Source: a phage. From it: DNA of 64,000 nt. A program made the position numbers and the translations under genes. The DNA lies in sequence record NC_135729.1. One strand, written 5' to 3'. Below are positions 12,427-63,525 of this stretch, one piece after another; within the stretch, counting starts at the first letter, position 1, and every line of letters starts with the position of its first letter. The notes beneath the pieces were generated by a model. The model did not search any database and had not been told where the DNA came from. It saw only the letters and a program-made list of their open reading frames with translations.

Positions 12427-12509
12427 GTGTCCGTATCACGGACAGTTAGTGTCCGTATTACGGGCAGATGTGTCCGCGTGACGGACAGTAGTGTCCGTAT
12501 CACGGGCAG
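12427..12509. repeat. four tandem 19-bp iterons with internal dyad (GTGTCCGTATCACGGACAG-like), about 21-bp spacing
   Basis: Units start at 12427, 12449, 12470, 12491; each holds the inverted repeat TGTCCGT..ACGGACA. Confidence 0.7.
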
Positions 12510-12583
12510 TTACTGACCTCTGTTCCAGAGCGAACATAAAACATACGAATCCTTATAGTACAGATATTTAAGTTTTTACTGGT

Positions 12584-35092: not shown

Positions 35093-36112
35093 TTGACAGA
35101 AGCCACAAGGATGTGGCATACTTGGCTAATCTATGAGAACCAAGAGGGATCAAAGATGCCTAGAGGAAAACAACTTACAACTGAAGAATTTACAAAAAGA
35201 GCTAGAGAAGTACATGGCGATAAATATGACTATTCAAAAACCGTATATAAAACTGCTAAAAGTAAGGTTGTAATTGTATGCCCTGTTCATGGTGAGTTTA
35301 CGCAGATCGCTGGACATCATATCCTTGACGGTAGTGGGTGTCCTAAGTGTGGTAGAGTGCCAGTAGGCAATAAGCTTAGAAACGATTCTAGTGATATTAT
35401 CAAAAAATTTGTAAAAATCCACGGTGACACCTATGATTATTCTAAGGTTGAATATGTTAACTATAAAACTCCTGTAAAAATTGTATGCCCTGAGCACGGA
35501 GTGTTCTTGCAATCCCCATCTAACCATTTGAAAGGCCAAGGGTGCCCTGAGTGTAGTAAACTCATTAGCGCAGCAAAAAGGAATAAAGGCCCTGAATTCA
35601 TAGAAAGAGCCAAAGAAATCCATGGCGATAAATATGACTACTCTTTTGTAGATTATATGACTTGCGAAGATAAGGTAGAGATAATCTGCAACACTTGTGG
35701 AAATCACTTCACCCAGACACCTTCTTGCCACCTGTCTGGTCGTGGATGCCCTAAATGTGCCAAAAACGGTTTCTTATCTCACAACTATGGGAAGCTTTAC
35801 CTCATGGTTGATAACTTAGAAGCGCCAACACTTATGAAGATCGGTGTGAGCGTCAATGTAGAAGCGAGGAAGGGAAGGATATTAAGAGCATCCAAGAAGG
35901 CTGGTGCAGGTATTTATGATCTCCACATAGTAAAAACATGGGGCGGATCGACTGAAAACATGCTGAGTGTAGAAAAATCTGTGCATGAAGCCTTCAATAA
36001 GTATAAAATAAACTTCTCTAAAGTATTTAGTGGAAGCACTGAATTCTTTCACTACAGACCTGAAGTGTTTAGCATAGTGGAAGCAGTATACAAAGAGATC
36101 TGTGGTAAATGA
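35093..36112 (+). CDS. homing-endonuclease-like protein (repeated Zn-ribbon modules)
   Basis: Four repeats of HGDKYDYSK..V.CP.HG.F.Q..H..G.GCP.C; C-terminal EFFHY segment; inserted between nrdD and nrdG; probable start ATG 35156. Confidence 0.45.
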   Translation: MTEATRMWHTWLIYENQEGSKMPRGKQLTTEEFTKRAREVHGDKYDYSKTVYKTAKSKVVIVCPVHGEFTQIAGHHILDGSGCPKCGRVPVGNKLRNDSSDIIKKFVKIHGDTYDYSKVEYVNYKTPVKIVCPEHGVFLQSPSNHLKGQGCPECSKLISAAKRNKGPEFIERAKEIHGDKYDYSFVDYMTCEDKVEIICNTCGNHFTQTPSCHLSGRGCPKCAKNGFLSHNYGKLYLMVDNLEAPTLMKIGVSVNVEARKGRILRASKKAGAGIYDLHIVKTWGGSTENMLSVEKSVHEAFNKYKINFSKVFSGSTEFFHYRPEVFSIVEAVYKEICGK

Positions 36113-54888: not shown

Positions 54889-55151
54889 TTATTTGTTGCT
54901 CATCCAGTTTTCCCAAGCTGCCTGATAATCTGCCTCACTACGGCGGATCTCTTCTTGTTCTTCAAGCCGGATCTCTTCTTCCAGGTACCCCAAGATGTCA
55001 GCCTTTTTAGTCTGGCGTAACATCCAATCGTCTTTTTTGCGAGTAAAGATCTTGTACGCTTTCTCGCAAACTTCTTTTTTGCTACCTTTTTGGACTTCAA
55101 GAATTCTGTAAGCCATGTACTGAACTAGTTTGAGCTGGTCAAGACGTTTCA
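54889..55151 (-). CDS. hypothetical protein
   Basis: Start ATG 55151 after AAAGAGGAAAACATC; leader hairpin GGGCC..GGCCC at 55185-55198. Confidence 0.4.
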
Positions 55152-57385: not shown

Positions 57386-57670
57386 TTATTTATTGATAGC
57401 GTGTAGCGGGAAAGGTACGCCAGGTTGATAGATAACTTTTACAACTTCATCCGGGCAAAAGAAGTTGCAGAACTCACCGCAATAAGCCTCATCCTCTTTT
57501 AATTCTTCATCAACATACTGGAAAAAGTAGTCAACGCTAGGATAATCCTGCCCAGGATTATAGTCAACCATAGTCAGCAACATTTCTTGATCGTTCCGAA
57601 GGATATGCATACCCGCTTTTAAGTATTTTGCTTCCATTTCCACTACATCGCCAACGGTAACAATAGCCAT
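57386..57670 (-). CDS. hypothetical acidic protein
   Basis: 94-aa ORF with GGAG Shine-Dalgarno. Confidence 0.4.
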   Translation of the reverse strand: MAIVTVGDVVEMEAKYLKAGMHILRNDQEMLLTMVDYNPGQDYPSVDYFFQYVDEELKEDEAYCGEFCNFFCPDEVVKVIYQPGVPFPLHAINK

Positions 57671-57727
57671 GGTTTTAACTCCTATCTATCCGGTTAATGA
57701 TTGGGGGCCGCCCCCCTGATGCGTCCT

Positions 57728-57755
57728 ATTATCCATATTGTCAGGAATGATGCAA
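57728..57755 (-). promoter_or_regulatory. sigma70-like promoter plus 5' stem-loop cassette
   Basis: TTGCAT - 16 nt - GATAAT, then GGGGGCGGCCCCC hairpin at 57703-57715. Confidence 0.5.
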
Positions 57756-57870
57756 GTACTTTTTAAAAATTTTTAAGCGCCCCGTATGCCGTTGTAACGC
57801 CAAAATAATAAAGGCCATGCAACCGCATAGCCTTTATGTGATTATATTGCTGCAGGCCCTGCTAGGGGCC

Positions 57871-58221
57871 TTATTTTGCATTCTTGCCTGTATTGCCGCC
57901 ACGGTACCAGCGTCTGCGGTGAAAATGGTAATAATCACCCTCGGCATTAAACATCAGATGATTTTCAATAACCAGCTTACGAAGGTAGGCCGGATCTTGT
58001 TCCATTCTTGCCAGATTCCAGCGGCTGTTACGTAAGCGTATAAATTCCATATTCAGGCCGTTGATTGCAGTATGGATGTCAAAGTAACCACCTTTGAGAC
58101 GTTCACGCATGGCGTTAAGCTCAACACAATATACAGATTTCTCACAAATCAAGGTATTAGCTATGGCGCGGACCTGGGCAAGGGGGTTAAGCTCATTAAG
58201 GTAATATAGTTTTACTTTCAT
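57871..58221 (-). CDS. hypothetical protein
   Basis: 116-aa ORF. Confidence 0.4.
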   Translation of the reverse strand: MKVKLYYLNELNPLAQVRAIANTLICEKSVYCVELNAMRERLKGGYFDIHTAINGLNMEFIRLRNSRWNLARMEQDPAYLRKLVIENHLMFNAEGDYYHFHRRRWYRGGNTGKNAK

Positions 58222-58238
58222 AAAATCACCTGCTGAAA

Positions 58239-58537
58239 TTAGTTTGAGAAAACATCGTTCACAATAGCGATCACAATGCCGCCCACCTTGTCACGGTCAA
58301 CAACGCACAAATCACCATAGATCATGTGGTAGTCTGGATGATCTTTCACAGAATAGTCGATAAGTGTTTTCTTGTCATCCAGCTTACTAACTTCCATTCT
58401 CATAACGATATGAGAATCATCAAAGGCATTATTCCGAAAAGTCATAACCTGACCGCCAGGGCACCCGGTGATTTCCACCTCCACGCCGTCTACGATCTGA
58501 CCATCAAAGAAATAAAGATTATTAGCCTGGATAAACA
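58239..58537 (-). CDS. hypothetical protein
   Basis: Start ATG 58537 with GGAG 8 nt upstream; conserved 60-bp element lies upstream. Confidence 0.4.
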
Positions 58538-58566
58538 TGATCATTACTCCTTTTTGCACTGATTAT

Positions 58567-58626
58567 TTTAACAGGGTTTAAATTTACTTTATTGATGGCC
58601 CTAGAGTCAAGGCCATCTAAAAATAA
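58567..58626. repeat. conserved 60-bp element, copy 1 (hairpin GATGGCC..GGCCATC with U-rich and A-rich arms)
   Basis: Near-identical to 62313-62370; hairpin core 58593-58616. Confidence 0.6.
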
Positions 58627-58629
58627 ATT

Positions 58630-58830
58630 TTACAGGCCTACAATCTCTTTGATTCGTTTAACCGCCGCCTCAGCGCCTTGGGGGTAAAAATTATGGTAAC
58701 CAATCACGCGAGTGATACTAATCGCCGTTTGATGATCTTCATAGTCGCCCTTGAAGATTTCTTGACCGTCAATCAGCACGGCAATTTTTTCTTCTTTTTT
58801 GAAGTTAATAACGCGGATATTGTTGCTCAT
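58630..58830 (-). CDS. hypothetical protein
   Basis: 66-aa ORF with AAAGGAGAAACAAAA leader. Confidence 0.4.
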   Translation of the reverse strand: MSNNIRVINFKKEEKIAVLIDGQEIFKGDYEDHQTAISITRVIGYHNFYPQGAEAAVKRIKEIVGL

Positions 58831-58886
58831 TTTTGTTTCTCCTTTCTGGTTTTTGTGTTGGTGGGGATGTTTCCCCGTTGATTGTT

Positions 58887-58914
58887 ATTATCCATATTCC
58901 GGACCGGATTGCAA
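58887..58914 (-). promoter_or_regulatory. sigma70-like promoter plus 5' stem-loop cassette
   Basis: TTGCAA - 16 nt - GATAAT, then GGGGAAACATCCCC hairpin at 58863-58876 and CA-rich leader. Confidence 0.55.
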
Positions 58915-58970
58915 CACCCGGGAAGAAAAATTTTTGAAAAAGTTAAGCCCCCAGGGATTGGGGGCCGTTA

Positions 58971-59090
58971 TCAGTTACTTACAGCGATAAAGTACATCCC
59001 TACGCCTAACAATATTTCAAGGGCGATGATCTCAAGCCATACCATAACACGGCGCACCTTATCGGTGCGGGGCTTATCCTTGGTTGTCAT
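58971..59090 (-). CDS. small membrane peptide (39 aa)
   Basis: MTTKDKPRTDKVRRVMVWLEIIALEILLGVGMYFIAVSN; terminator-like hairpin downstream at 58928-58952. Confidence 0.3.
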   Translation of the reverse strand: MTTKDKPRTDKVRRVMVWLEIIALEILLGVGMYFIAVSN

Positions 59091-59110
59091 CGTCTCCCCC
59101 TCCCCTCCTG

Positions 59111-59332
59111 TTAGCAGTGACGTGGTTTGCAATGGCCCCCAGGAGTATTATCACCACGCACATTACAAGAAAAATTATCTCTGTCGTTGTTCGATCCATT
59201 GTTATAAAATTCCTTAAGATCAGGCCTGAAAATAAAGCTTTCGTTATTGAATCCATCGCGCCAGGCGGCTGGCTTCAAATCTTCACTAAAGGGATTAATT
59301 AACGTGGCATTATTTAAACGGCTGGTCCACAT
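59111..59332 (-). CDS. hypothetical Asn/Gly-rich protein
   Basis: Start ATG 59332 with GAGAGG Shine-Dalgarno; competes with overlapping frame 59074-59256. Confidence 0.3.
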   Translation of the reverse strand: MWTSRLNNATLINPFSEDLKPAAWRDGFNNESFIFRPDLKEFYNNGSNNDRDNFSCNVRGDNTPGGHCKPRHC

Positions 59333-59681
59333 ATTTTCTATTCCTCTCAAATAGGCGATCCGCCTCAGTCAAACAAATCTCATGGGCGTGATCTCTGGTT
59401 TTAGCTTCATCGAAAACCTGTTGTGCAAGGCTGCAACGTAGGGAGACTGGAAGATCGCTGTAGTAGGCGTTGACAAATGTTTGAGCGTCGTACAGGTCTG
59501 AAAATACTTTACCCTTTCTATTATTCCCCTTGTCAACAATTGCAAGGATAACCAATACAATAGTTGCAACCACTCCCAGGAAAATAGATATAATAAACCA
59601 TAAAAAGGCGGATCTGCCCATCTTGCCAGCGATCCAGGCGTTAAACAAGGCAACTAATATAGCCAAAATAATAAATTCCAT
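59310..59681 (-). CDS. membrane protein with two predicted TM helices
   Basis: Start ATG 59681 with AGAGG; two hydrophobic helices then a soluble C-terminal domain. Confidence 0.4.
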   Translation of the reverse strand: MEFIILAILVALFNAWIAGKMGRSAFLWFIISIFLGVVATIVLVILAIVDKGNNRKGKVFSDLYDAQTFVNAYYSDLPVSLRCSLAQQVFDEAKTRDHAHEICLTEADRLFERNRKYVDQPFK

Positions 59682-59748
59682 TCTATGTACCTCTTTTACA
59701 GTTCTGATTAACAATAAGGCGGCAAATATGCCGCCGCCTGTTACCTGA

Positions 59749-60129
59749 TTAAAAATTATCGCCGTAAATCTTTCCGCTTTCTACCCATACCACCACGCGG
59801 GGCATACTATCCCACACATCTTGTTTTAGATTGAGCGCGTGCAATTCTTCGGTGGTGCTCATACCAGGCACGGGCTGATTGTATACTGCAAAACGACCAC
59901 CTGCATAATCATAGGCCAGAGTTAAATCACACTGAATCATCTTTTTGATCATGGCGTTAAGCATAGCGTTAGCCGCATATTGGTCACGTTTTAAAGGCAA
60001 CTCTTTGATTAGTTTGCGATAGTTTTCGATATGGTCGCACACAGTTTCACGTGGAAGATCTTTCATATCTTCACGGAATGTAACCAGGTTAAACATAACG
60101 GTGTCAATAGCCTTGGTGGTGTTTTTCAT
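59749..60129 (-). CDS. hypothetical protein
   Basis: Start ATG 60129 after AAAGAGGAAAACATC; hairpin 60154-60173. Confidence 0.4.
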   Translation of the reverse strand: MKNTTKAIDTVMFNLVTFREDMKDLPRETVCDHIENYRKLIKELPLKRDQYAANAMLNAMIKKMIQCDLTLAYDYAGGRFAVYNQPVPGMSTTEELHALNLKQDVWDSMPRVVVWVESGKIYGDNF

Positions 60130-60182
60130 GATGTTTTCCTCTTTGTTTTGTGTGGGGCAAGTCATCTCGCCCCTTGAGTTTT

Positions 60183-60210
60183 AATATAGCAGGTTTTTAG
60201 ATTATTGCAA
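60183..60210 (-). promoter_or_regulatory. sigma70-like promoter plus 5' stem-loop cassette
   Basis: TTGCAA - 16 nt - TATATT, then GGGGCGAGATGACTTGCCCC hairpin. Confidence 0.55.
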
Positions 60211-60218
60211 CACTTTAT

Positions 60219-60842
60219 TTATGAAAAACTCATCTCCCCATATTCATCCACATTAAACCGCCAATCATTGGCTTCAATAAGGCCGATCAGGTTTTCGGTA
60301 GTAAACTGTTCAAGATAGGCCTCCTCCAGGTCTACATAAACCTTGCGGGATAGCTCCCGTACCGTCTCGGTGATCAGCTCTTCCAGCTCTTCAACCTTAC
60401 TTTCTTGCTTGGCTGTCAGGTCTAGCCATGTAGTATCGATGTACCCGCTTACAGTGTTTTCGTGACTATAGCGGCTATATGGATCACGCTCAACACTTGC
60501 GGATAGCTCGCCATCGTGCATTGTGCCGAACAAGTGACGAATTGAGCGGAATTTAGTCAGAGACTTGACTTTACGCAAGAATTTTTCTAAATCCACGTTT
60601 TCCGCACTGATTGACGCGCCGTCGCCCTGGCACCAAAAGCCGGACCAATGTACCTTGGTATCTTCAAGGCCATACTCTGGAAAGATATGTTCTTTATAGT
60701 CTTCAATTACACTTTCTGCAAAAAAGTTATCCCCGCTGTGTTCTTCTCTTTCGCGGACCATTTCAATAGCTTTTTCTTTTTGTTCATCGGTCAGCACGTC
60801 GAAAGATAAATTGTAACCTGTGGTAATGTTAACGGTGGTCAT
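60219..60842 (-). CDS. hypothetical acidic protein
   Basis: 207-aa ORF; AATAGGAGAAAATATC leader. Confidence 0.45.
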   Translation of the reverse strand: MTTVNITTGYNLSFDVLTDEQKEKAIEMVREREEHSGDNFFAESVIEDYKEHIFPEYGLEDTKVHWSGFWCQGDGASISAENVDLEKFLRKVKSLTKFRSIRHLFGTMHDGELSASVERDPYSRYSHENTVSGYIDTTWLDLTAKQESKVEELEELITETVRELSRKVYVDLEEAYLEQFTTENLIGLIEANDWRFNVDEYGEMSFS

Positions 60843-60899
60843 GATATTTTCTCCTATTTTCTTTGTTAGTGGCGGGAAGTTTTCCCGCCTGTGTGTTTA

Positions 60900-60927
60900 A
60901 GTATACTTATCGAGATTTACTTGTCAA
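60900..60927 (-). promoter_or_regulatory. sigma70-like promoter plus 5' stem-loop cassette
   Basis: TTGACA - 16 nt - TATACT, then GGCGGGAAAACTTCCCGCC hairpin at 60871-60889. Confidence 0.6.
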
Positions 60928-61177
60928 CACTATTTTTTAAATTATTGTGGCGCAAAATGCTTAAAATCTCTTCAACGTCATCAACACGGCGGCAATTTTT
61001 AAACGCTACCAATTGCCCCATGATTTTAATCACTGGACGGCCTTGCCAGTGCCCTTGGAGAAAGCGCGCCTTAACTTTATCGGTGGAACTATCACGCCAC
61101 CAAACGGCTTTATTATTGCAGTAGTAAAAATTATTCAGTACTACATCTACCTTATCAAAATTTTTCAATTTACGCAT
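60917..61177 (-). CDS. hypothetical protein
   Basis: 86-aa ORF; GGAAGGAG Shine-Dalgarno; its stop abuts the next promoter. Confidence 0.4.
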   Translation of the reverse strand: MRKLKNFDKVDVVLNNFYYCNNKAVWWRDSSTDKVKARFLQGHWQGRPVIKIMGQLVAFKNCRRVDDVEEILSILRHNNLKNSVDK

Positions 61178-61212
61178 GGCGTTTACTCCTTCCTTCTTGC
61201 TTTGATGTGGTC

Positions 61213-61241
61213 AGTATATCCGGACTATTCCAAGGTGTCAA
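61213..61241 (-). promoter_or_regulatory. sigma70-like promoter
   Basis: TTGACA - 17 nt - TATACT. Confidence 0.55.
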
Positions 61242-61385
61242 GCTTTAAATAAAATCACTGTCAATAACATTTTTAACGCCATAAAACGGCCCTAGACGCT
61301 GTTTTCAGGTTAAGAAAGGGGATTGCATAGGTAGGGGCTTTTATGGCGCTTGTGGGGCCAACCGTGGGCGCTATTCGTAGGATAG

Positions 61386-61412
61386 AAATAAAAACCCCGC
61401 ACAATGGCGGGG
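61386..61412 (-). terminator. rho-independent terminator
   Basis: CCCCGC-cattgt-GCGGGG stem followed on minus strand by TTTTTATTTC. Confidence 0.55.
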
Positions 61413-61421
61413 CGTTGGTTG

Positions 61422-61619
61422 CTATTTGTCTTTGTGGCGGTATCGTTCCGCTTGTCGTTCACGTTCCAAAAGCAGGCTGGGTAATTTGCGATCATAGTGA
61501 TTTCGCCAGATCTTCCCAAATCTTTTCGGCTTATTCAGTTTATTGTTACGCTGGCGTCGTTCCGGCAGCTCTTTGGAATCATGAGATCGCTTTACAATCT
61601 TCTCAAAATTAATCTTCAT
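61422..61619 (-). CDS. small highly basic protein
   Basis: Start ATG 61619 with AGGGGGGAATAT upstream, overlapping the upstream stop (ATGAAGATTAA); Lys/Arg-rich. Confidence 0.4.
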   Translation of the reverse strand: MKINFEKIVKRSHDSKELPERRQRNNKLNKPKRFGKIWRNHYDRKLPSLLLERERQAERYRHKDK

Positions 61620-61962
61620 ATATTCCCCCCTTGCTAACTTCAATATTGGCCTGAATAGCCCGGATACGGCGCTTTATAACCTCCTGATCCTTGCAATCAT
61701 ATCCCCAAAAGTCTACGATTTTTGCGCCTCCAGCCTTTAGGCGGTATAGTGTTTCTTGCATCTTGTAAGCTGGGATCGGTCGCGGTGTTACCTGGTCGCC
61801 CTTCTCATTCTTGTACTTGATAATGTAGTCTTCATTGTCGTTGAATACCCAAAATGGGTATTCTGTGAGCGCGTTGCTCTCTTTTTCGTTTTTAGATTGG
61901 ATCTTGTTTACAATTAAAGCCGTAGCAATAGCGCCAATAATAAAACTTGCCCCGCTGATCAT
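61609..61962 (-). CDS. membrane-anchored protein
   Basis: Start ATG 61962 with AAAGGAGAAAGTA; N-terminal TM helix. Confidence 0.4.
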   Translation of the reverse strand: MISGASFIIGAIATALIVNKIQSKNEKESNALTEYPFWVFNDNEDYIIKYKNEKGDQVTPRPIPAYKMQETLYRLKAGGAKIVDFWGYDCKDQEVIKRRIRAIQANIEVSKGGIYED

Positions 61963-62037
61963 GTACTTTCTCCTTTCATTGTGTTGATAAACTGTCTTTA
62001 TAGATGGCCCTGCTACCAGGACCACCGAAAAAACAGC

Positions 62038-62283
62038 TTATTTGACGATACCGACAAAACAGATCCCGCCTTCCCCTATATAGGCAATGTCGGTAATTTT
62101 ATAATTTGTCAAGATCCGCGTGTTCAGATCATTAATAAAATCGGTCATCGCGTTGGTGTAGTTGTCTTCCGTGTCTAAGGCATAATCCCAGGTGTAAACC
62201 TTTTTACGTCCGAAGCCTTTTACCATGATACGGGCGCTTTTGGTGTTGGTAGGGGCATAATATTTGGTGATTAGTGCTGCCAT
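62038..62283 (-). CDS. hypothetical protein
   Basis: 81-aa ORF with GAGGAG Shine-Dalgarno; conserved 60-bp element upstream. Confidence 0.4.
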   Translation of the reverse strand: MAALITKYYAPTNTKSARIMVKGFGRKKVYTWDYALDTEDNYTNAMTDFINDLNTRILTNYKITDIAYIGEGGICFVGIVK

Positions 62284-62312
62284 GGTTTTAACTCCTCTGA
62301 ATTAGTTCAGTG

Positions 62313-62370
62313 TTAACAGTACAAAGTTTACTTTATTGATGGCCCTGAAGTCAAGGCCATCTAAAAATAA
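62313..62370. repeat. conserved 60-bp element, copy 2
   Basis: Hairpin core 62338-62361; near-identical to 58567-58626. Confidence 0.6.
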
Positions 62371-62372
62371 AC

Positions 62373-62777
62373 TTAGTAAGTTTTCAGTACTTTACCGTCC
62401 AACCTGTCAAGCTGGATCTCGATAGCTGCAGAAAACCTATTGTAAACCACATCGCCCATAGAATCCAACCAGTCTATGATATTATACACTTGCTCTTTGT
62501 TCTTGCAGGTCCGGATCCGTTTCATGATGTAAGCCGGATCAATATTGGTACTCTCGTTGGTGTTCCCCTGTACCTGGTTTGCCGTATTAGTTACATCTTT
62601 AATGGCCTTTACCACCACCTGGAATGGCTTTAAGGTACCTTTTGCGTTCATCTCACGCGCTTTTGCGGCGCGGTTGTTATATGTTACACAACGGCGGCAA
62701 ATGTTGATCAAATGCATGTCAATAATTTTTTCATCGTTTGCCAGCTCGTTCATGATGCGGCGTACGTTCTTATTCAT
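62373..62777 (-). CDS. hypothetical protein
   Basis: 134-aa ORF; AAAGGAAAAAGAT leader. Confidence 0.45.
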   Translation of the reverse strand: MNKNVRRIMNELANDEKIIDMHLINICRRCVTYNNRAAKAREMNAKGTLKPFQVVVKAIKDVTNTANQVQGNTNESTNIDPAYIMKRIRTCKNKEQVYNIIDWLDSMGDVVYNRFSAAIEIQLDRLDGKVLKTY

Positions 62778-62825
62778 GATCTTTTTCCTTTGTGCTGGCG
62801 GGAAACATTCCCGCCTTTTGTGTCT

Positions 62826-62853
62826 AGTTTACTTGAATTTTGCAGCGTGTCAA
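62826..62853 (-). promoter_or_regulatory. sigma70-like promoter plus 5' stem-loop cassette
   Basis: TTGACA - 16 nt - TAAACT, then GGCGGGAATGTTTCCCGCC hairpin at 62798-62816. Confidence 0.55.
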
Positions 62854-62864
62854 TAATTTTTTTT

Positions 62865-63263
62865 TTATTCGTGGGCACATGTTACAATGTGCTTTTTATA
62901 GCCTAGGTGGTCAGCAAGTGCTGACAAAAACTCTTCTTCGTAGATCCAGCCGTTGGCAGTGATCCCCATAGCATTTAATGCGCTCTCAAGTGCTGCGTTA
63001 GCTTTATCATAACCGTGACCGCTCGCCTTGCCGCCAGTATAGCCGTACTTATTGTTCTTGTTGTCGTGTATCCAAAAAACGCAGTAGTAAGTGTTCCCGC
63101 TGGCGGCGGCATAATACCGGATCTCAGCTACTTCGTGCAAATTATTGTCATCGTCCAGGCCCACCAGATTATAAGCCTTGTAAAATCCACGATCACGGCG
63201 GCAGTTCTTGACATCAGAAAAAGAAAAGTCTGCATTATCAAAATTAAAGGTAGTGGTTTTCAT
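62865..63263 (-). CDS. hypothetical protein
   Basis: 132-aa ORF with AAGAGGAT Shine-Dalgarno. Confidence 0.45.
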   Translation of the reverse strand: MKTTTFNFDNADFSFSDVKNCRRDRGFYKAYNLVGLDDDNNLHEVAEIRYYAAASGNTYYCVFWIHDNKNNKYGYTGGKASGHGYDKANAALESALNAMGITANGWIYEEEFLSALADHLGYKKHIVTCAHE

Positions 63264-63295
63264 GATTTTATCCTCTTAGTGTCTTTTGTGCTTTT

Positions 63296-63325
63296 AGTGT
63301 ATTTGGTGTCGGACTATATGTCAAT
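63296..63325 (-). promoter_or_regulatory. sigma70-like promoter
   Basis: TTGACA - 17 nt - TACACT, CA-rich leader. Confidence 0.5.
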
Positions 63326-63327
63326 AC

Positions 63328-63525
63328 TTATTTTTTATTAAACCAGTGGTTGATCTGACCTTTTGTCAGGGCGCAACGATTAAGCTGTTGCAGGGTATAG
63401 CTATGACCGCGACGAAATTTATAAAGGCCTTGCCCGTTGTTGATGGTTACATCCACCCGGCAAATCACTTGATTGGTGACCACCTGGCGAGTGTTGCGAC
63501 GTACTTTGATCCCGTATGCGTTCAT
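63328..63525 (-). CDS. small basic protein
   Basis: Start ATG 63525 with AAAGAGGATAAATTT leader. Confidence 0.35.
   Translation of the reverse strand: MNAYGIKVRRNTRQVVTNQVICRVDVTINNGQGLYKFRRGHSYTLQQLNRCALTKGQINHWFNKK

Follow-up and report, generated by a model that had tools for sequence, protein, structure and literature searches.

Why does a phage carry nearly the same hairpin-forming sequence directly behind the stop codons of several of its small early genes, and is this signal read as DNA, as RNA, or as both? The question is raised by a repeated 51-nucleotide (nt) element in a 64,000-nt stretch of phage DNA (record NC_135729.1), to which we refer as the window. With moderate confidence, we propose that the element is a cassette akin to the promoter-early stem-loops (PeSLs) of T4-like phages, in which an RNA hairpin that processes or stabilises 3' ends is fused to a sigma70 early promoter and which also offers a point of recombination. 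The window belongs to a Vequintavirus, an rV5-like Escherichia coli myophage: in BLAST searches the 6 kb around the element are 94-99.8% identical to more than 100 Vequintavirus coliphage genomes, the closest being 'Campylobacter phage' C5 and C2 (99.7-99.8%) and phiWec191 (97.8%). All genes near the element lie on the minus strand, the orientation that is also annotated in relatives, and are small hypothetical early genes of the rV5 ORF164-238 block (ORF, open reading frame).

A first-pass annotation of the window had described two near-identical copies of a 60-bp element. The repetition is real: a 45-nt pattern has just two matches, at 58583-58627 and 62327-62371, and the exact palindrome GATGGCC-N10-GGCCATC only at 58594-58617 and 62338-62361, with none expected in shuffled sequence in either case. 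However, the unit measures 51 nt (47 of 51 positions identical, or 92%, by repeat finder; Table 1), and a diverged third copy, D (67% identical), had been overlooked. On the minus strand the consensus reads AARTTTATTTTTA-GATGGCCTTG-ACNN-YAGGGCCATC-AAT-AAAGTAAAYTT. The earlier description of its setting and composition holds on that strand, both the position between a stop codon and the next gene and the TTGACT in the loop, and either strand shows a T-rich 5' arm and an A-rich 3' arm. In every copy the upstream stop codon extends into column 1 or columns 1-2 of the unit, and the downstream start codon follows 26-39 nt past the hairpin with a GGAG-type Shine-Dalgarno (SD) sequence ahead of it; for the two similar window copies the next ATG (58538 and 62283) is 38-39 nt downstream. 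Relatives usually carry four paralogs, A to D, inside about 4.4 kb of the early small-ORF region. The window holds three: recombination of the repeats has deleted the 623-bp gene cassette that relatives have between copies C and B and has left a C/B hybrid.

The sense-strand RNA of every copy folds into an A/U-rich lower stem of 11 bp that begins at the upstream stop codon, a 2x3 internal loop, an upper stem of 10 bp and a tetraloop, giving in all four paralogs a helix of 21 bp, or about two helical turns. The long irregular stem that had been predicted from the extended arms is therefore confirmed. The internal loop is conserved as UA/AAU in copies A-C and UC/UAU in D, and U.G/U-A pairs stand near the top of the upper stem in A-C but are absent there in D. 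Folded as the sense strand, copy A has a free energy of -23.1, the C/B hybrid one of -29.1 and copy D one of -30.7 kcal/mol, and the z-scores lie between -4.2 and -7.4. Antisense folds are weaker, at -17 to -20 kcal/mol and z-scores from -1.9 to -3.8; for copy D the z-scores are -6.2 on the sense strand and -2.6 on the antisense strand (-17.1 kcal/mol).

Evidence for selection comes from an ungapped alignment of 51 columns and 29 distinct copies from the window and its relatives. Standard pairs fill 97.0% of the pair cells, against 35-56% when the partners are slid, and the observed covariation score was reached by none of 500 shuffles. Four pairs of the lower stem show double, compensatory changes, while the upper stem is 100% paired and varies at four pairs through G.U only. 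Two lower-stem pairs alternate among the orthologs of D, one through the series C-G/U-A/U.G and the other through G-C/G.U/A-U. With a covariance model of the same 29 copies, the sense strand scores 67-80 bits and the antisense strand 27-43. Mean pairwise identity of the hairpin (0.91-0.98) is higher than that of the preceding 60 nt of coding sequence and the following 45 nt of leader, the flank values being lower bounds from an ungapped comparison. Taken together, the paired cells, the compensatory and G.U-only changes and the gap between strands show that selection acts on the structure of the sense-strand RNA and not on the DNA palindrome.

Copy D is the most informative in this respect. Its 3' stem strand, CAGGGCCAUC, is the same as in copies A-C, and the 5' strand of its upper stem carries three transitions (A>G, C>U and U>C) that keep pairing only as sense-strand RNA. 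Its left half-site, now GGTGGTC, thus keeps G.U pairing but loses the DNA palindrome. This bears on the suggestion of the first-pass annotation that the element might be a protein recognition site, which as a site on duplex DNA is disfavoured because the G.U-only substitutions preserve pairing on one strand only. A specific form of that idea is an operator in which GATGGCC/GGCCATC around the -35 box binds a dimeric phage or host regulator of early promoters. The 7-bp half-sites are indeed constant in all A, B and C copies and bracket the -35 hexamer, and a 16-nt block, AGGGCCATCNATAAAG, is near-invariant even in D. Yet the complementarity runs 11 bp further into the flanks and is compensated there, which an operator does not need; the asymmetry between sense and antisense is strong; and the half-site centres are 17 bp apart, which would place them on different faces of the helix. 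We consider such an operator very unlikely.

If the element works as RNA, what would it do? Each copy closes a one-gene unit that opens with a promoter. We propose that transcription from the minus strand places the module at the 3' end of this early unit, where it folds, and that the hairpin would mark and protect the 3' end of the upstream mRNA. It might do so through processing of a single strand by an RNase III-type enzyme in or beside the internal loop, or simply as a barrier against 3' exonucleases. RNA polymerase would read on past the hairpin, and at copies A, B and C transcription may also re-initiate a few bases beyond it from sigma70 boxes.

Termination is not expected at this hairpin. 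No U-tract follows it on either strand (AAUAAAG follows in the sense direction and UAAAAAUAAA in the antisense direction), which makes termination unlikely, and a terminator scan passes over the element while calling canonical hairpin and U-tract terminators in the same gene row. An intrinsic terminator on either strand was therefore rejected, in agreement with the first-pass annotation. There is a subtler version, in which a terminator or attenuator is fused to a promoter, so that the hairpin cuts read-through and the promoter restarts transcription. PeSL stem-loops lowered downstream lacZ expression to a degree comparable to rrnB T1 (PMC2839356), and in promoter-coupled terminators, which are intrinsic terminators whose T-tract is the promoter spacer, the DNA of the stem-loop serves as the -35 box (Fletcher et al., bioRxiv 2026, 10.64898/2026.08.19.745784). 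The element is similar in that the stem-loop DNA of the upstream transcript supplies the downstream -35, with the -10 just past the enclosing upper stem, and in that every hairpin closes a one-gene unit. Unlike them, it has AAUAAAGUAAA after the upper stem in place of a U-tract, its lower stem is A/U-rich and followed by at most three U, and its spacer consists of the 3' stem strand plus AATAAAG, so that the T-tract spacer required by the promoter-coupled model is absent. We regard a terminator fused to a promoter as improbable.

Several of the RNase III sites of phage T7 adjoin promoters. Like T7 sites such as R1.1 and E. coli substrates, the element is an intercistronic hairpin of about two turns with an asymmetric internal loop and a tetraloop, and in such substrates the loop confines cleavage to one strand and leaves a 3' hairpin that protects the upstream mRNA (Pertzev and Nicholson 2006, PMC1540722). 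RNase III acts on about two helical turns of double-stranded RNA, with a minimal substrate of at least 11 bp reported (PMC1540722). In structural terms the element offers both the helix length and an internal loop that could limit cleavage to one strand, although its upper stem of 10 bp plus the internal loop is at or just under the 11-bp minimum, counted from scissile bond to tetraloop, of that study. It differs from the T7 sites in that its promoter boxes lie inside the hairpin DNA and not beside it, and the match is one of geometry, with no similarity in sequence.

At the level of DNA, the repeats take part in recombination. Compared with C5, the window falls into two BLAST pieces that overlap by 61 nt, and it lacks 623 bp that C5 has between its copies C and B. 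The corresponding segment of relatives contains a small membrane ORF, the canonical promoter P192 and the gene for a 113-amino-acid acidic protein. The hydrophobic peptide of about 36-39 amino acids that it encodes (rV5 ORF193; locus L001 6300-6412, minus strand) lies directly after copy C and upstream of P192, and is unannotated in phiWec191. A C/B hybrid is also found in ECP26 and in one IMG/VR contig (L005), each with a different flank haplotype, and A12a has the element in two places; the differing haplotypes suggest that the cassette has been lost recurrently. ECP26 matches the window at 99.3% in ORF194 and 92.6% in ORF191, phiWec191 at 87.3% and 100%, and C5 at 100% in both. The ORF194 alleles form two groups, one at least 95% and the other 86-89% identical to the window, and which of them a phage carries does not depend on its ORF191 allele. 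Since these alleles combine differently among phages, the element sits at a mosaic boundary.

The cassette has also crossed between subfamilies. KKE7M, a Justusliebigvirus, carries a single copy of the element right after a 113-amino-acid gene with 97% identity to the one in the Vequintavirus cassette. Relative to the phi92-like phage UAB_1, a unit of promoter, 5' hairpin, gene and element has been substituted for another gene, with the left crossover in a shared promoter and the right one in AATAAAGTAAA. The right crossover lies in AATAAAGTAAAYT, the block that forms the -10 region of the resident UAB_1 promoter. Just upstream of the transferred cassette, KKE7M has an unannotated 95-amino-acid ORF (locus L002 3287-3573) with its own promoter and 5' hairpin. 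The repeats serve as portable homology in cassette deletion in the window, in the reassortment of neighbouring alleles by recombination inside or beside them, and in transfer of a cassette to a phi92-like phage.

Could recombination be the main purpose of the element, as in a selfish or dedicated sequence (similar to a miniature inverted-repeat transposable element, or a homing or integration site) that mainly moves gene cassettes? Recurrent deletion between repeats, movement of an element-bounded cassette to another subfamily and mosaic allele boundaries at the element would all fit. But a genome has just four copies, which share one orientation and sit exactly at stop codons. No gene for a recombinase, transposase or endonuclease accompanies them, the flanking proteins having no Pfam match, and 5,426 E. 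coli genomes hold no copy. Moreover, the left junction in KKE7M lies in an ordinary shared promoter and not in the element, so general homologous recombination suffices. Of all the explanations considered, we find this one the hardest to credit.

The first-pass annotation had also suggested an alternative promoter, and this remains plausible. A promoter scan finds TTGACT-18-TAAATT in copy A (58610-58581) and TTGACT-18-TAAACT in the hybrid (62354-62325), each matching 9 of 12 consensus positions, a level that is common by chance. Three of the four paralogs, A, B and C, carry TTGACN-18-TAAAYT, while D lacks TTGAC. The -35 box lies in the apical loop and the -10 box in the 3' arm, with CTAGGGCCATCAATAAAG as a spacer that contains no T-tract, and the AT-rich TTTATTTTTA lies directly upstream of the stem and the -35 box in A, B and C. 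TTGAC is near-invariant in these copies, including two unpaired loop bases (the exceptions are one TTGATT, and TTGATA in a divergent copy with indels), and other variation in the -35 region is limited to the sixth position of the box and the two bases after it. The 3' arm of A, B and C, which contains TAAAYT, is unchanging although its partners in the 5' arm change without compensation, whereas in D both arms vary and are compensated; this invariance points to an extra constraint on the -10 side. In UAB_1 the resident promoter, TTGCAA-16-TAAACT, has as its -10 region the block homologous to AATAAAGTAAAYT, with AATAAAGTAAACT common to the element; this block stands 11 nt before a 5' GC hairpin, inside the range of 9-12 nt at other early promoters of these phages. 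Short GC hairpins of this kind (GGCGGGAA..TTCCCGCC or GGGGAAACATCCCC) follow the -10 of the canonical early promoters by 9-12 nt, in KKE7M as well, and are probably 5'-terminal stabilising stem-loops of early mRNAs. We judge it reasonably likely that the element has promoter activity.

Several observations weigh against this composite interpretation. The promoter match is only 9 of 12 with a long 18-bp spacer, where the canonical early promoters of the region reach 10-11 of 12 with spacers of 16-17, and hits of at least 9 of 12 are frequent by chance, numbering 32 in 9 kb where 21.1 are expected. Since most of TTGAC, including TTG, and all six bases of TAAAYT are paired, structure alone could explain much of the conservation of the boxes. 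The A, B and C copies of Vequintavirus lack the 5' GC hairpin that follows canonical early promoters, and the downstream genes could be served by read-through from upstream promoters. On the RNA side, lower-stem pairs 1, 3 and 4 are mismatched without compensation in some B and C copies, and copy A of C9, an unverified genome, is without 12 nt of the 3' arm, TAAATT included. The phylogenetic depth is shallow, a single genus with orthologous copies that are 91-98% identical, and gene conversion among paralogs is likely, so that the independent substitutions are few. The assignment to RNase III is an argument from geometry only, and literature searches found no RNA-end, cleavage or reporter data and no transcript maps for rV5-like phages. 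A seemingly clean compensatory change from A-U to G-C between copies A and B is weakened by an A.C mismatch there in several B copies. A search for deeper covariation through distant homologs of the flanking genes failed, as homologs of ORF194 and ORF179 are confined to Vequintavirus; ORF191 homologs are at least 90% identical within the genus and below 47% in unrelated phages.

Some of these points support a purely RNA-level alternative, in which the element is a hairpin of the 3' untranslated region for processing, stabilisation or protein binding, the resemblance to a promoter is coincidental and no transcription starts there. Copy D retains the fold in the absence of TTGAC, no terminator separates the canonical upstream promoters from the downstream genes, so that a promoter is not required here, and the authors of the rV5 genome called none at the element. 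Set against this are the unpaired A and C of TTGAC, near-invariant in A, B and C and different in D; the constancy of the 3' arm in those copies while its partners change uncompensated; and the KKE7M/UAB_1 junction, which sets TAAAYT exactly at the position of the resident -10 relative to the 5' hairpin. An RNA-only role is possible, though in our estimation rather unlikely.

A more elaborate version of the composite cassette would be a dual code, in which the RNA is cut in the internal loop by RNase III or a phage factor while the DNA acts as a sigma70 promoter that starts about 15-20 nt further on. If true, the processed and the newly started downstream mRNAs would share nearly the same 5' leader, and the upstream mRNA would retain a protective hairpin. 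The 3' block, AGGGCCAUCNAUAAAG, hardly varies, even in paralog D, which has no promoter boxes, and may be a protein site; it could be recognised by a dedicated RNA-binding or RNA-cleaving protein. We offer the dual code tentatively, as a speculative and on the whole unlikely elaboration.

The closest described kind of sequence is the PeSL, known from the T4-like phages RB49/phi1, T4/PST and KVP40/nt-1 (Arbiol et al. 2010, PMC2839356; Comeau et al. 2014, PMC4122927). In a PeSL, a sigma70 promoter with an AT-rich tract ahead of it is joined to a stem-loop, which in one of five subclasses overlaps the -35 box (PMC2839356). PeSLs sit between stop codon and SD in hyperplastic regions and mediate single-gene indels, and their promoter and attenuator activities as well as mini-circles have been shown experimentally (PMC2839356; PMC4122927). 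The element shares much of this: a repeated composite motif between stop codon and SD, among the small ORFans of a hyperplastic early region; AT-rich sequence ahead of putative sigma70-like boxes, which here match only 9 of 12 positions; a stem-loop that overlaps the promoter, here with the -35 enclosed by the 10-bp upper stem and the -10 included in the 11-bp lower stem; and single-gene cassette indels by recombination of neighbouring copies, with the crossover inside the motif. It differs in that its host is a Vequintavirus and not a T4-like phage, with only four copies per genome; in that its helix is long, interrupted and of fixed geometry (21 bp), where the PeSL hairpin is short with G/C runs; and in that it has no terminator features and a paralog, D, with the hairpin but no -35. 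For the element, covariation shows selection on the sense-strand RNA fold. We file the element as a promoter/stem-loop cassette with a well-supported role at the level of RNA.

How widely is this cassette distributed? Absence from related phages, which would have counted against the first-pass annotation, is not seen: a BLAST search with the element returned 346 places in 120 phage records, all but one of them Vequintavirus and usually with three places per genome; copy D is too divergent for this search and is present in every relative examined. A search of the complete rV5 genome and the window with the covariance model found exactly four copies in rV5 (110818, 114227, 114562 and 115193, record coordinates), three in the window and none beyond these. 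In IMG/VR the exact upper-stem pattern occurs in two Vequintavirus contigs only. A looser 15-base pattern gives 67 loci, of which just three, from these same two Vequintavirus contigs, survive re-scoring with the model, the others being chance matches; the locus L024 (28.8 bits) was judged spurious on that re-scoring. An Rfam search of 57500-63500 at a permissive E-value gave three sub-threshold chance matches, the nearest being SurC (25 bits against a gathering threshold of 80), and a known RNA family was rejected on this basis. The rV5 genome paper (PMC3606486) tabulates 33 promoters and 20 terminators, and the element is in neither table. It is thus real, conserved and not listed before in the reference rV5 annotation. 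Several GenBank records of the series MG0656xx (C5, C2, A12a, C9 and others) are labelled 'Campylobacter phage' yet are near-identical to E. coli Vequintavirus or Justusliebigvirus; this host label is doubtful, and several of the records are flagged UNVERIFIED.

The repetitive extragenic palindromic sequences (REP) and bacterial interspersed mosaic elements (BIME) of enterobacteria are imperfect palindromes after stop codons within operons, which can stabilise the upstream mRNA against 3' exonucleases and serve as substrates for recombination. The element is likewise an imperfect palindrome after a stop codon and a substrate for recombination, but it has no sequence similarity to them, is phage-specific and carries promoter boxes. 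An origin in the host was rejected, as no match was found in 5,426 complete E. coli genomes.

Table 1. Coordinates of the element, its promoter boxes, neighbouring genes and other features (window positions unless a locus is named)
Feature	Position	Strand	Remarks
Hairpin copy A, 51 nt, AAATTTATTTTTAGATGGCCTTGACTCTAGGGCCATCAATAAAGTAAATTT	58580..58630	-	Column 1 is the final base of the stop of the 66-aa (amino acid) gene; 75.7 bits sense, 34.3 antisense
Hairpin copy C/B hybrid, 51 nt	62324..62374	-	Upstream flank of C and downstream flank of B, as in relatives; 79.8 bits
Hairpin copy D, diverged paralog without TTGAC, AAGCTGTTTTTTCGGTGGTCCTGGTAGCAGGGCCATCTATAAAGACAGTTT	61989..62039	-	67.6 bits sense, 31.5 antisense
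-35-like TTGACT, copy A	58605..58610	-	TTG paired at top of upper stem; ACTC forms the apical tetraloop
-10-like TAAATT, copy A	58581..58586	-	In 3' strand of lower stem; predicted start about 58573-58578
-35-like TTGACT, hybrid copy	62349..62354	-	Promoter scan, 9/12
-10-like TAAACT, hybrid copy	62325..62330	-	Predicted start about 62317-62322; same -10 hexamer as rV5 promoter P194
Deletion junction	62325..62385		61-nt overlap of BLAST pieces against C5
Gene upstream of copy A, 66 aa, rV5 ORF179 homolog	58630..58830	-	Own promoter TTGCAA-16-GATAAT (58914-58887) and 5' GC hairpin upstream
Gene downstream of copy A, 99 aa	58239..58538	-	No Pfam match
Gene upstream of hybrid copy, 134 aa, rV5 ORF194 homolog	62373..62777	-	Canonical promoter TTGACA-16-TAAACT (62853-62826)
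81-aa gene, rV5 ORF191 homolog	62038..62283	-	Hybrid copy upstream, copy D immediately downstream
Gene downstream of copy D, 117 aa, rV5 ORF190 homolog	61609..61962	-	ATG at 61962
Canonical hairpin and U-tract terminators	59739-59717, 58966-58946, 57837-57808		Same gene row; terminator scan
5' GC hairpins	60871-60889, 62797-62815, 58861-58877; L002 3305-3325, 4324-4344	-	Minus-strand transcripts (window positions)
Other direct-repeat families	12427-12518 and 35186-35643		

The genes that flank the element (Table 1) are ORFans restricted to the genus. The neighbouring proteins have no Pfam matches, and the cassette protein has only two sub-threshold hits of coiled-coil type. A GTG-start ORF over copy D (61609-62025) was dismissed as an artefact, since in relatives the annotated start is the ATG at 61962, and this start has a good ribosome-binding site. 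Downstream of copy A, a 116-amino-acid gene (57871-58221) is found in the window, ECP26 and S127 and is absent in rV5, JES2013 and EPFV3. This is another indel of the same hyperplastic region, with no element at its flanks. A TGGTAAAAT box that resembles an extended -10 and the rV5 'late' motif occurs just downstream of copy A in C9 (locus L009 9863-9910) and JES2013 (locus L008 5510-5600).

Other repeats are also found in the window. A 28-nt family, reading TTTCATGATGTTTTCCTCTT... on the plus strand, occurs at 55147, 55481, 56743, 60124 and 63258, where five minus-strand genes begin; it spans their leader, ribosome-binding site and start codon and so represents a common, conserved context of translation initiation. 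Further direct repeats comprise two 28-nt units at a distance of 64 nt and, at intervals of about 200 nt, three 50-nt units that resemble a repeated coding motif.

Phages of the rV5 type are widely used candidates for therapy and biocontrol, and their early region consists of unannotated ORFans with promoters predicted by hand. The element adds to this region a conserved signal, backed by structure, that is missing from the reference annotation. For engineering, its repeats are natural sites of instability, and the 623-bp cassette appears to have been lost repeatedly. As an example of a promoter/stem-loop cassette the element is useful yet fairly ordinary; such cassettes appear to link the exchange of single genes beyond the T4-like phages, including a transfer from Vequintavirinae to Stephanstirmvirinae.

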